Shown: positions 308 to 7,234 of the stretch, piece after piece | Position numbering within the stretch: position 1 is the first letter of the stretch | Layout of the letters: each line of letters begins with the position of its first letter | Origin: Escherichia coli | Lineage (GTDB): Bacteria > Pseudomonadota > Gammaproteobacteria > Enterobacterales > Enterobacteriaceae | Direction: 5' to 3' (one strand) | DNA: 7,660 nt | Assembly: GCF_003334335.1 (NCBI RefSeq) | Contig: NZ_QOWQ01000072.1 | Notes under the pieces: model-generated | Seen by the model: the letters and a program-made list of their open reading frames with translations, nothing else | The model's database searches: none | Told to the model about the DNA's origin: nothing | Translations under genes and position numbers: made by a program

Positions 308-1453
308 CTAGCCAGTTGTGGCGCGCTCTGCTATCCAGTCTGCGATTTTTGCTTCCAGCTCCAGTCTGGTGGTGAAGCCGCTGTCGTCGATGACGTGCTC
401 AATGCGCGAAATAACCCAGTCCTGATTGTCAATATCGCTCTTGAACCCGGATACCGTGCCGTGCATCTCCGGATACAGGTCGGCGCGTCCGCGCGCCAGC
501 GTGATGCTGAATTCTGCTGCACCCCGCTGAAGTTGCTGCCAGCGTGCGGCAGCTGCGCGACGCGCGGCTTCTTCGTTCGGGTAGGTTTTTCTCAGCACAT
601 ATACATTGCCTTCTGCGCCTTCCATGTATCCACCCTCCCGTGAACTGCTTTTCTCCGGCTTCTGTGTGGTTTTCGCGTTTCGCTTTTTCACGTTCACGGC
701 CTTCTTCTGGCCGAACTTTAAATCCAGCCAGTAAGCTTTCACTCCGGTATAGGCTTTTCTGTCAGCAATGCGAAAGCGATGACTGTCGCCATCCGAGCGG
801 GTCAGGGCGAATGAGGGGAGGGCGCGCCCGCTGGCTGTCACACCGCCACCCGGCAGAATGAACAGCAGGCTCCCGTTTTTTACGGTGGTTATTGCACCCA
901 GCATGTCAGCCATACGCGTGAGGAACGAGATGTCGCTTTCCTCTGTCTGGTCTGCATGGTCGATTTCGATATTCATCAGCATTTCGCTGATTTGTGCTTT
1001 CAGTCCGTAACGGTGCGCGATGGCAGATACCACACGCTCAACGGTCACGTCATGCCAGGAGACTTCGCGTTTCACGTTAAACTCTTCGCGAAAATCCGCA
1101 CTGTTCGCGGATATGGTCAGCTTATCCGGCGGACCTTCGTGGCTCACTTCGTCCACCACAAACGTCCCCTTGCGAGTGAGGCTTTCACCTTTCCATCCCA
1201 TCGCCAGCGATAATCGTGTTCCGCGTTCCGGAAGTACCACCCCGCCGTCGGCGTCGTCGATTTCCAGTGTCACCCTGTCAGCCTCAAAACCCCTGTTGTC
1301 TGTCATGGTCAGGCTCATGATGCGCTGCGTGATGTTCTTCAGGCTGGCATCTTTCCCTTCCAGTGTGATAGTGAAGTCTGGCACCCTAACGGTATCTTCC
1401 GCTGCATCCAGTGCGCTGTTGATGTGATGTGTTACTGATTCAGTGATGCTCAT
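308..1453 (-). CDS. D: P2 gpD-like tail protein (late control gene D family; baseplate hub/spike-associated), 381 aa
   Basis: 381-aa ORF with start ATG at 1451-1453 preceded by a strong SD (GGGAGGG, plus-strand ccctccc 1459-1465). Motifs typical of the gpD family as I remember them (GFEAD..L.IDD.DG, GTF.VDE, HRFRIADR, SGFKSDID..W.I..IEH). Stop TAG at 308-310. Confidence 0.88.
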   Translation of the reverse strand: MSITESVTHHINSALDAAEDTVRVPDFTITLEGKDASLKNITQRIMSLTMTDNRGFEADRVTLEIDDADGGVVLPERGTRLSLAMGWKGESLTRKGTFVVDEVSHEGPPDKLTISANSADFREEFNVKREVSWHDVTVERVVSAIAHRYGLKAQISEMLMNIEIDHADQTEESDISFLTRMADMLGAITTVKNGSLLFILPGGGVTASGRALPSFALTRSDGDSHRFRIADRKAYTGVKAYWLDLKFGQKKAVNVKKRNAKTTQKPEKSSSREGGYMEGAEGNVYVLRKTYPNEEAARRAAAARWQQLQRGAAEFSITLARGRADLYPEMHGTVSGFKSDIDNQDWVISRIEHVIDDSGFTTRLELEAKIADWIAERATTG

Positions 1454-1513
1454 GATATCCCTCCCGTGTGCGTATCATCCCACGCGTACCTTGTCGTTTC
1501 TGTCTGGCTCTGT

Positions 1514-1531
1514 TGTAAAAAAATCCCCACA
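1514..1531. promoter_or_regulatory. TGT-N12-ACA dyad, candidate Ogr-type activator site of a P2-like late promoter
   Basis: Sequence TGTaaaaaaatccccACA is the only perfect TGT-N12-ACA in the 153-bp D/FI intergenic region. A -10-like hexamer GATTAT (1566-1571) lies about 46 bp downstream of the dyad centre, giving the roughly -55 activator placement known for P2 late promoters. FI start is at 1607. Confidence 0.5.
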
Positions 1532-1606
1532 GCCCGCATCAGGTGATGGCTGTGCGCCAATGGTGGATTATTCAGGCGAGCATAAACACAACTGATGGTG
1601 AATCGT

Positions 1607-2800
1607 ATGGCTGAAAAACGATTTCACGGTGTGCGCGTCACGGAGAATACCGACCTTGTGACGGCCATTAATGACGTTGATTCCAGCGTCATTGGTATTG
1701 TTGCCGTTGCAGATGATGCGGATACCGGGCAGTTCCCCCTTAACAAGCCAGTGCTGATTACCCGTGTATCTTCTGTTCTGGGGAAGGCCGGGAAAGCGGG
1801 CACGCTTTATAAGGCCCTTAAAGCGATATCTGACCAGGTCAGTACACGGGTGATTGTCGTTCGCGTGGAGGCGGCAAAAGAGGGGGCTGAGAATAAAACA
1901 CAGGATCAACTGGTCATTGGTACCACGGAAGAAGACGGAAGCTACAGCGGTATGCAGGCGCTTCTGGTTGCCGAACAGATGGAAGGTATTGGTTGCCGAC
2001 CCCGCATTCTTGCCGCTCCGGGCCTTGAATCGGATGCTGTCACGGCTGCACTGGTGACTGTTGCCGGAAAAATGCGCGCATTTGCGTATTCCGGCTGCCC
2101 TGGCTGCACAAAACCGTCCGATGCTATTGCGTTCCGTAAAAAGATTTCCGGTCGCGAAATCATGCTTCTGTGGCCTGATTTCATTGCGTTCAACCCGGTG
2201 TCCGGTAAAAACGAAACCTTCCCGGCTGCGGCGTATGCGTGCGGTCTTCGTGCCCGACTCGACCATGAACAGGGCTGGCATCGCTCCCTTTCTAACATGC
2301 CTGTGAAAAATGTTCTTGGGGTGTCAGCGTCTGTTTCCTGGTCACTTCAGGATGAAAACAGCGATGCCAACACGCTGAACAACAGCGAGGTGACCACTCT
2401 TATTCACCAGGGCGACGGCTCCTTCCGTTTCTGGGGTAACCGTACGCCGGAAACTGCGGAGTACATCTTTGAGGTGTACACACGTACGGCGCAGCAACTG
2501 GCTGACACCATTGCGGAGGCGCAACTTCAGATAGTGGATTCACCGCTTACGCCTGCCAATGCTAAGGATGCCGTGAGCGCTATCAAGGCAAAGCTGGATG
2601 CACTGGTGACAGCCGGAAAACTCATCGGGGCTGAGTGCTGGTTCGATATCATCGACAACGGCACAACCAGTCTTCGTCAGGGCATTGTGCGTATTCGCTA
2701 CAAATACACGCCTGTTCCGCCGATGGAGTGTATGGAACTCTATCAGACGTTTACCGACGAGTTCTTCAGCTCTGCTTTTGCATCTCTTGGAGGTAGCTAA
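1607..2800 (+). CDS. FI: Contractile tail sheath protein (P2 gpFI-like)
   Basis: ORF 1595-2800; the second in-frame ATG at 1607 has the better SD (GGTGA, 1597-1601). Strong resemblance to P2 FI as recalled: FPLNKPVLIT, KAGKAGTL, PRILAAPGL, REIMLLWPDF, LRARLDHEQGWH, TTLI..GDGSFRFWGNRT, YTRTAQ, YKYTPVPP. Stop TAA overlaps the FII ATG (TAATG). Confidence 0.93.
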   Translation: MAEKRFHGVRVTENTDLVTAINDVDSSVIGIVAVADDADTGQFPLNKPVLITRVSSVLGKAGKAGTLYKALKAISDQVSTRVIVVRVEAAKEGAENKTQDQLVIGTTEEDGSYSGMQALLVAEQMEGIGCRPRILAAPGLESDAVTAALVTVAGKMRAFAYSGCPGCTKPSDAIAFRKKISGREIMLLWPDFIAFNPVSGKNETFPAAAYACGLRARLDHEQGWHRSLSNMPVKNVLGVSASVSWSLQDENSDANTLNNSEVTTLIHQGDGSFRFWGNRTPETAEYIFEVYTRTAQQLADTIAEAQLQIVDSPLTPANAKDAVSAIKAKLDALVTAGKLIGAECWFDIIDNGTTSLRQGIVRIRYKYTPVPPMECMELYQTFTDEFFSSAFASLGGS

Positions 2801-3312
2801 TGGCCGTACCAAAAAAACTTCGTGTGTTTACCGTCTTTGTGGACGGTGACAACAAGCTGGGAAAGGTGACGTCTTTTACCCCGCCAAAACTGACCCGTAA
2901 AACAGAGTCGTATCGCGGGGCGGGGATGCCAGGCTCTGCGTCGGTGGATCTCGGTCTTGATGATGGTGCACTGGATCTCTCCTTTGCGGTTGGTGGCGTC
3001 GATCGTCACATCTTTGCCAAATACGCCGCCGGTATTGATGCCGTGCGTGTTCGCTTCTCGGGTGAATACTATTCCGAAGAAGGGATTGAGTACGTCGATA
3101 TTGAAGCCCGTGGTCGCATTGTCGAAATCGACAAGGGCGAGGCCAAACAGGGTGAAGATACCGAACATACCTATGCGATGAAATGCACCTGGTACAAGCT
3201 CAGCGTTGATAACAGCGATGTTATTGAAATCGACGTGCTGAACTTCATCTGGCGCATTGATGGTAAGGATGTTCTTCCTGACCGCACCCGCTCCATGCTG
3301 GGGCTTGGCTGA
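2800..3312 (+). CDS. FII: Tail tube protein (P2 gpFII-like), 170 aa
   Basis: SD GGAGG at 2789-2793 and ATG at 2800 overlapping the FI stop. Translation resembles P2 FII as recalled (PKKL..F..G....G...S.T.PKLTRK.E.YRGAGM.GSA.VDLGLDD, KQGEDTE...). Confidence 0.92.
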   Translation: MAVPKKLRVFTVFVDGDNKLGKVTSFTPPKLTRKTESYRGAGMPGSASVDLGLDDGALDLSFAVGGVDRHIFAKYAAGIDAVRVRFSGEYYSEEGIEYVDIEARGRIVEIDKGEAKQGEDTEHTYAMKCTWYKLSVDNSDVIEIDVLNFIWRIDGKDVLPDRTRSMLGLG

Positions 3313-6723: not shown

Positions 6724-6734
6724 GAGTGATGGTT

Positions 6735-7199
6735 ATGATGATGATTTACGGCATGTTTGTTTTTCAGTTAAGCACACTGCCACACCAACAAATACAACAG
6801 TCCCGTAACTGGAGGCATGTAAAGAACGAGCGAATCAACCGCTCAGCCAGCTGGCAGTATATCGGCGCGGGTGACGATACCATCACGCTTTCGGGTTTGC
6901 TCTACCCGGAAATTACGGGCGGTGAAGTCTCCCTGACCGCACTGACCAGCCAGGCTTACGTCGGGCGACCATGGCCGCTGATTGATGGGGTAGGGCAGAT
7001 TTACGGGATGTATGTCATTACCGGGCTTAACACCACCCGCTCTGAACTTGATCGCTATGGTCGGGCAAGAAAGATTGAGTTTACTGTCACTTTTGAGCGT
7101 GTGGATGAAGATCTGCGTGAACGTCTTCAGTCCTCGTCGCTTGGTGATCTTGCGAATAACGTTAAAGGTGCCCTGAATAATCTGTCCATTCCGGTTTAA
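6735..7199 (+). CDS. U: Tail protein U (P2 gpU-like), about 154 aa
   Basis: Translation MMMIYGMFVFQLSTLPHQ...GRPWPLIDGVGQIYGMYVITG...RKIEF closely resembles P2 gpU as recalled (MMMLALGMFVF...TLPHQ...RAWPLLDG.G.IYGMYVI). SD GGAG at 6723-6726 overlaps the T stop. The ORF track starts at GTG 6726; ATG 6735 has the better spacing. Confidence 0.9.
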   Translation: MMMIYGMFVFQLSTLPHQQIQQSRNWRHVKNERINRSASWQYIGAGDDTITLSGLLYPEITGGEVSLTALTSQAYVGRPWPLIDGVGQIYGMYVITGLNTTRSELDRYGRARKIEFTVTFERVDEDLRERLQSSSLGDLANNVKGALNNLSIPV

Positions 7200-7206
7200 A
7201 TAATAA

Positions 7207-7229
7207 CGCCCTGGTGTCAGGGCGTTTTT
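7207..7229. terminator. Rho-independent terminator, probably bidirectional, between U and the convergent right-edge gene
   Basis: Perfect 7-bp stem CGCCCTG / CAGGGCG (7207-7213 and 7218-7224) with GTGT loop, followed by TTTTT (7225-7229) on the plus strand. On the minus strand the same hairpin is followed by a weaker U-rich tract (UUAUUA). It sits 8 nt after the U stop and immediately after the minus-strand gene stop at 7235-7237. Confidence 0.8.
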
Positions 7230-7234
7230 GCTGT

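Follow-up and report, generated by a model that had tools for sequence, protein, structure and literature searches.

The sheath-to-U tail block of a P2-like Escherichia coli prophage is flipped relative to P2, probably by inheritance of an old inversion

Introduction

In phage P2, the tail genes FI to U and the gene D that follows them are carried on the same strand. A stretch of 7,660 nucleotides from Escherichia coli (assembly GCF_003334335.1, contig NZ_QOWQ01000072.1; this whole stretch is called the window hereafter) contains a P2-like tail module in which FI-FII-E-T-U lie on the plus strand, while D and ogr sit upstream of FI on the minus strand. A first, sequence-only reading of this DNA called the synteny non-canonical and equated it with an in-situ inversion of the FI-FII-E-T-U block. 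It considered a distinct phage lineage, a tailocin architecture, a rearrangement or an assembly artefact as origins, and it proposed that D needs its own promoter and that its dosage is uncoupled from the sheath/tube operon. The locus thus raises two questions, namely how this gene order arose, and how D is expressed once it is separated from the operon.

Results

Gene order of the window

All seven genes of a P2-like (Peduoviridae) tail module, FI, FII, E, T, U, D and ogr, were identified by PHROGs, NCBIfam and Pfam matches. Their orientation is a direct fact of the sequence and not a statistical signal:

72-266, minus strand: ogr, late-gene activator (Pfam Ogr_Delta, E 4.5e-16; residues 4-51 align to model positions 2-47 of 47)
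308-1453, minus strand: D, tail/baseplate hub protein (Pfam Phage_GPD; PHROG 52, E 6.5e-153)
1607-2800, plus strand: FI, tail sheath (PHROG 23, E 1.8e-112)
2800-3312, plus strand: FII, tail tube (TIGR01611, 113 bits against a curated cut-off of 102.75)
3364-3744, plus strand: E, chaperone (PHROG 103)
3892-6723, plus strand: T, tape measure (PHROG 28, E 2e-119; TIGR01760; start as in the RefSeq annotation)
6735-7199, plus strand: U, tail protein (Pfam Phage_P2_GpU, E 6e-40)

The start codon of FI was placed at 1607 and not at 1595 (the former is kept across aligned relatives). The gene identities, the strands and the two junctions, 1454-1606 between D and FI and 7200-7234 after U, agree with the sequence-only reading, and so does the equivalence with an in-situ inversion, the layout being that of P2 (H-G, FI to U, D-ogr) with the FI-U block alone flipped. 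The tail operons of P2, 186 and phiCTX share with the window the same eight genes, the same E/E' frameshift, an Ogr-type late promoter before FI and the position of ogr after D. They differ from it in that FI to U and D form one co-directional unit there, whereas in the window a terminator closes the block after U, and D is preceded by a ribosome-binding site (RBS) of its own and a putative promoter.

Distribution of the flipped order among P2-like phages

Relatives were found at the protein level, by searches with D and FI, as the nucleotide search gave no tail-gene match: megablast of the whole window against deposited phages gave matches only at the tail-fibre-assembly end and at the end occupied by an insertion sequence (IS), and none across the tail genes. 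The best protein matches of D and FI were found in the same records, where both genes are adjacent and on opposite strands. FI and D are back to back, with the full layout annotated, in P88 (Xuanwuvirus), phiT5282H (Novemvirus), 3LV2017 (Reginaelenavirus), ST16-OXA48phi5.4 (Reipivirus), SEN4 (Senquatrovirus) and Serratia phage KSP20. As in the prophage of the window, H-G of these six phages converge on the block U-T-E'-E-FII-FI, beyond which D-ogr are oriented like H-G. The P88 group shares 54-75% amino-acid identity with the window in FI and D (73% for the P88 sheath, 72-75% for D of P88 and phiT5282H). As its protein identity to named phages does not exceed ~75% and nucleotide matches are lacking, the prophage of the window belongs to a lineage without an isolated representative.

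The orientation was also recorded in IMG/VR loci sampled around the closest relatives of the window D (80 loci), around those of SEN4 D (80 loci) and around P2 D. FI adjoins D and is divergent from it in 80/80 loci of the first sample and 80/80 of the second. It is co-directional with D in all 71 loci around P2 D that have both genes, and the co-directional order is also that of 186 (Eganvirus), phiCTX (Citexvirus), ENT90 and P2-type Peduovirus. The window displays the arrangement of the flipped genomes, with the FI start adjoining and divergent from the D start and ogr next on the D strand, and not the canonical one, in which FI to U and D share a strand and a transcription unit. FI identity to the window ranges from 50 to 96% in flipped genomes versus 40 to 48% in canonical ones.

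A simple neighbour-joining tree was built from two proteins, FI and D, with only four canonical lineages sampled and no support values. In it, all 20 flipped representatives form one clade, sister to ENT90, P2 and 186, with phiCTX as the outgroup. The window groups with P88 and locus L016 inside this clade. Since the flipped genomes form a single clade, a single old inversion is indicated. We conclude, with a probability of about 0.85, that the flipped order is the inherited and normal gene order of a large P2-like branch (P88 and relatives), which goes back to one old inversion at the base of the clade. The synteny is non-canonical relative to P2, 186 and phiCTX but is the rule in the window's own clade, and the architecture is not new for the lineage, because its closest relatives, six named phages and 160/160 loci, routinely have D-ogr divergent from FI. 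Together with the FI plus D clade, the same phages and loci uphold the distinct lineage that the sequence-only reading had offered as one option.

Authenticity of the junctions and age of the inversion

Sixteen complete E. coli chromosomes, sequenced in unrelated projects, contain bases 76-7660 of the window as one unbroken match of 98.8-99.6% identity; two further E. coli chromosomes match them at 88%. The possibility that the FI-U block was misoriented by misassembly at 1454-1606 and 7200-7234 can practically be dismissed, as the same junctions are carried independently by these 16 genomes, which come from various laboratories and platforms, by two IMG/VR contigs at 93-99% and by more than 160 diverged relatives. 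Moreover, both junctions bear conserved elements that look functional, a dyad with candidate promoters at the first and a terminator at the second.

A recent inversion specific to this strain, brought about by inverted repeats, IS186 or an invertase of the Gin/Cin type, is scarcely more credible. An IS186 end is indeed present in the window, related phages have an invertase beside one boundary of the block, and a 22-nt imperfect inverted repeat (77% complementary) links 1566-1587 to 7161-7182. However, the orientation is common to the whole clade, down to ~50% FI identity, and the monophyly of this clade implies an old event. The IS is found on the far side of ogr, away from either junction, and the 16 genomes that share the orientation lack it. 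Similarly weak pairs number 23 in the window, the 22-nt repeat among them, and this repeat lies off the gene boundaries; it was dropped as a trace of the inversion, the event being as old as the clade. Inverted repeats at both junctions were sought, and only weak pairs of 14-25 nt were obtained, which look like chance and of which none lies at both boundaries. Finally, no invertase gene is present between U and the next gene in the 99.6% identical copy of a complete genome (L001).

The presence of an invertase is a difference between P88 and the window lineage: in P88, G and U are separated by an invertible tail-fibre segment with an invertase, and the window lineage, as seen in L001, has neither. 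In phages with an invertible tail-fibre segment, the DNA invertase gene is found exactly at one edge of the FI-U block, next to U in P88 (L002, 25416-27564) and next to FI in a P2-type phage (L009, 3793-5208). It is conceivable, as pure speculation, that an invertase acting at a secondary site was the origin of the old inversion.

The complete prophage

In L001, the stretch lies inside a complete P2-like prophage adjoining serS. Genes for the portal, terminase, scaffold, capsid, lysis, baseplate and tail fibres are all found in this prophage. On the minus strand its order is O-N-M-L-X-lysis-R-S-V-W-J-I-H-G; FI to U come next, on the plus strand, and D-ogr-hok follow on the minus strand again. 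Two of its genes look like accessory cargo, namely a hok/gef toxin gene just past ogr (L001 19618-19758) and a 656-amino-acid DUF6645 gene between the lysis and tail-completion genes (L001 33425-35395).

This context bears on the tailocin option, in which the window would belong to an R-type tailocin (a headless phage-tail bacteriocin) with a layout of its own. The window by itself holds only tail genes and its ogr is damaged by the IS, both of which speak for this option. The absence of capsid, portal and terminase genes that characterizes tailocins is nevertheless not observed, judging from the flanks of the L001 copy, where capsid, scaffold, portal, terminase, lysis and baseplate genes are found. 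In addition, P88 and PhiSM, two members of the flipped clade, are infectious phages, viable and inducible or spontaneously active (PMC5285337, PMC6456863). We therefore consider a tailocin very improbable, and the activity of these two phages indicates that the flipped order is compatible with virion production.

The D-FI spacer

In P2 and 186, D is read from the FI promoter, and its start codon overlaps the stop codon of U, by a single base in P2 and by 4 bases in 186. Reading from the FI promoter is no longer possible in the window, where D is on the strand opposite to FI, and the earlier statement that D needs its own promoter is most likely right. The D-FI spacer is 153 bp long (1454-1606), and D is preceded by its own RBS, GGGAGGG. 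Three elements were recognized in the spacer, from which two putative promoters, P_D for D and P_F for FI, are proposed:

1514-1531, no strand: TGT-N12-ACA dyad (TGTAAAAAAATCCCCACA), presumed Ogr site common to P_D and P_F; the only perfect intergenic match in the window
1474-1482, minus strand: candidate extended -10 of P_D (TGnGATGAT), its hexamer GATGAT (from 1479 down to 1474) beginning 43.5 nt from the dyad centre
1566-1571, plus strand: candidate -10 hexamer GATTAT of P_F, the FI late promoter, beginning 43.5 nt from the dyad centre

TGT-N12-ACA is the consensus of P2 late promoters (PMC3931495). A second match, at 7260-7277, was not counted as an Ogr site, being inside the coding sequence of the tail-fibre-assembly-type (tfa-type) gene that follows U; two matches per window correspond to the chance level (mean 1.65). 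The spacer has the make-up of a late promoter, with the dyad upstream of a weak -10 and a poor or absent -35. A generic sigma-70 scan detected nothing in the D-FI spacer, which is expected for activator-dependent promoters. If the hexamers are placed at -12 to -7, the dyad lies near -55 of both promoters, which we take to be the position of the Ogr, B and Delta sites in P2, 186 and P4.

The spacers of 28 representatives were aligned, and 141 distinct D-FI spacers were then scored; these sequences are related, and the counts that follow are not independent. All 141 spacers have a GTTGT-N12-A[C/G]A dyad in the same place of the alignment, with one mismatch at most, the N12 and the flanks being variable. 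An xAxxAT hexamer begins exactly 43.5 nt from the dyad centre on the D side in 124/141 spacers and on the FI side in 127/141. The exceptions are mostly shifts of 1 nt, and almost no indels occur between the dyad and the hexamers. P88 and the allied genera have the same dyad, the same flanking hexamers and a separate D RBS in a spacer of ~110-180 bp. The mirror position at the canonical promoters of 186 and of the P2-type phage has no such hexamer, so that only the flipped clade has the element of the D side. In most lineages, a conserved run of alternating C and G (CGCGCGCGC) also adjoins the D-side -10-like element on its upstream side. It is clearer in L018, L003, L008 and other relatives than in the window, where it is only partly kept (CACGCGTAC, ~1483-1490).

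A similar arrangement exists in phage 186, at the promoters p12 and pV. The GenBank record assigns one B-protein site to "activation of pV and p12 promoters", that is, to two divergent late promoters. As in the window, GTTGT-N12 is midway and each -10 hexamer begins 43.5 nt away from its centre. The ends of the p12 and pV promoter features are 112 bp from each other, and ~111-113 bp separate the predicted start sites of the window. The offset of 43.5 nt is also that of 186 pJ, for which the record likewise gives a start site, as at the candidate FI promoter of the window; it is 42.5 nt at the FI promoter region of the P2-type phage (L009). The difference lies in the genes governed: p12/pV serves the packaging operon (homologues of P2 Q and P) and the capsid operon (homologues of P2 O-N-M-L), whereas the site of the window would serve D-ogr and the tail genes from FI onwards. 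Only one other GTTGT-N12-ACAA dyad, a perfect one, occurs in the L001 prophage, at the divergent O/P junction (scaffold/terminase), 40333-40350. That dyad overlaps the annotated start of the O-like gene in a gap of just 66 bp, and one of the start codons may be mis-annotated. The O/P junctions of L001 and of the P2-type phage (L091) were considered as a further precedent but displayed no clear geometry, and the annotated 186 record was relied on instead.

By analogy with 186, D most likely has its own late promoter, with an activator site common with FI. Another explanation could be that the order is typical of the lineage but that D depends on an Ogr-independent sigma-70 promoter of the extended -10 type, the dyad serving FI alone. 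Such promoters, made of TGn and a hexamer, are able to work without an activator, and TGn precedes the D-side hexamer in 69/141 spacers; the conserved C/G run is present and a -35-like element is not. We find this explanation doubtful, although it deserves more weight than the alternatives considered above. The mirror offset of 43.5 nt is kept where the intervening sequence has diverged, for which an unrelated promoter would offer no reason, and the same mirror geometry is annotated as a single B-protein site at 186 p12/pV. Furthermore, D is a late structural protein that is needed together with the other tail parts.

The convergent end of the tail block

The other boundary of the flipped block is formed by the end of U and the end of a minus-strand gene:

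7205-7226, both strands: two-way intrinsic terminator between the convergent U and tfa-type genes (terminator scan, folding)
7235 to beyond 7660, minus strand: 3' part of a tail-fibre-assembly-type gene (DUF4376; PHROGs 11571 and 1141; RefSeq annotation in L001)

As stated earlier, U ends at a strong terminator, a 9-bp G+C-rich hairpin with a folding energy of -16.1 kcal/mol on each strand (z -3.8 and -4.4) that none of 200 shuffles equalled. The equal folding on either strand and the T-rich run 3' of the hairpin on each strand indicate that it works in both directions. The tfa-type gene is the final gene of the V-W-J-I-H-G operon. It shares ~78% nucleotide identity with the tail-fibre assembly genes of the unrelated coliphages PhiR5, PhiR12 and P-Eib, and this match, set against the rest of the window, which has no phage nucleotide match, suggests an exchange of the tail-fibre module.

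The ogr end of the window

Two elements border ogr:

305-310, minus strand: candidate -10 hexamer TAGAAT of a separate ogr promoter, overlapping the D stop codon
1-75, no strand: IS186/IS421 (IS4-family) end, the terminal 75 bp, the rest of the element being outside the window

A TAnAAT or CATAAT hexamer is found at or beside the D stop codon, ~30-40 nt upstream of the ogr start, in 15 divergent lineages. The motif GAGTTCAACTCC is conserved after this hexamer in many lineages. The gap between D and ogr is of just 34-45 bp in the window and in most other lineages, but some Xuanwuvirus copies differ from the window by 1-4 kb of cargo at this place (IMG/VR loci L025-L028, L031, L034, L038, L041, L047, L052, L053 and L055), so that the gap looks like a hot spot for cargo insertion. 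Because the hexamer at the D stop is conserved and because cargo separates D from ogr in several Xuanwuvirus copies, ogr probably has its own promoter; a separate promoter and leader at the D stop codon are likely by analogy with pB of 186.

At the other end of ogr, bases 1-78 of the window are 100% identical to a multi-copy element that is present in 2144 of 5426 E. coli genomes, with a median of 3 copies each. In L004, the matching element directly follows a gene annotated as "IS4-like element IS421 family transposase". The window end thus resembles IS186/IS421, with 100% terminal identity and an adjoining IS421-family transposase gene, only 75 bp of it being in the window. The 16 prophage-bearing genomes match the window from base 76 onward and none of them has the IS insertion. 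IS186 prefers GGGG-N6-CCCC as a target, and the insertion lies in such a sequence of ogr, with the junction at 75/76. Ogr is shortened from 100 to 64 amino acids by the loss of the last 36 codons. Residues 1-64 are identical to those of L001 Ogr, the stop being at the IS junction without any foreign residue, and the zinc-finger Ogr_Delta domain is wholly kept.

Other features of the window

The E/E' frameshift of P2-like tail modules is also predicted in the window:

3364-3899, plus strand: predicted E+E' frameshift product (slippery site T_TTT_TTG at 3693-3699; from the sequence and its translation)

The -1 frame of E' is open over 68 codons, up to 3899, and overlaps the start codon of T, so that the window has the predicted signature of a programmed -1 frameshift. 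RefSeq gives only a 23-amino-acid "hypothetical protein" in the E' region and has no E+E' fusion annotated. Searches of FI, E and U against NCBIfam yielded no useful match, and the Rfam and tRNA scans of the window were empty.

Discussion

We found no remark on an inversion in the literature on P2-like phages, Xuanwuvirus, KSP20, SEN4/SEN5 and P88, including a 2026 survey of P2-like viruses. Although we have no paper that describes the inversion or the promoter, the flipped order can readily be seen in many public genomes with annotation. What is mildly new would be limited to the presumed capture of the Ogr site by D.

We propose, from the conserved geometry and the analogy with 186, that a single Ogr site in the D-FI spacer serves both directions, which would make this spacer a second bidirectional late promoter. 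In this model, the inversion would have set the late promoter of FI, together with the symmetric dyad that Ogr would bind, beside D, and the -10-like element of the D side would be placed as the mirror image of the FI -10. A single Ogr site, centred near -55 of both, would activate two divergent late promoters as at 186 p12/pV. In the clade as a whole, the V-W-J-I-H-G and FI-U operons converge on their common two-way terminator, with FI and D starting back to back over ~150 bp and ogr following D. In the model, ogr would probably keep its own promoter at the D stop codon while receiving read-through from P_D. We lean, by a modest degree, towards the full scenario in which the inversion ended no more than ~60 bp from the symmetric Ogr site of the FI promoter and a mirror -10 made the second bidirectional late promoter, repeating the 186 p12/pV design elsewhere in the genome. 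As for the proposed uncoupling of D dosage, D would indeed have a separate transcript, but the Ogr-binding dyad is probably common with FI, so its timing would stay coupled to that of the tail operon.

Several points weigh against this interpretation. The shared-site promoter relies on conserved geometry and on analogy, and the hexamers of the D side are weak, since they agree with TATAAT in no more than 3-4 of its 6 positions. The compared spacers are akin, so that their conservation does not amount to independent events, and the C/G run conserved on the D side has no place in the promoter model. The FI plus D tree has the simplicity noted above. Lastly, the prophage of the window itself may be defective through its IS-truncated Ogr.

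The P2 gene order is not universal in Peduoviridae, as the block from the sheath gene to U is flipped in a large and common clade of enterobacterial prophages. Annotators, as well as prophage or tailocin classifiers based on synteny, should not treat the flipped block as an error. If the promoter model is true, the D-FI junction would be a natural example of a symmetric activator site reused by a gene that an inversion had cut off from its operon.

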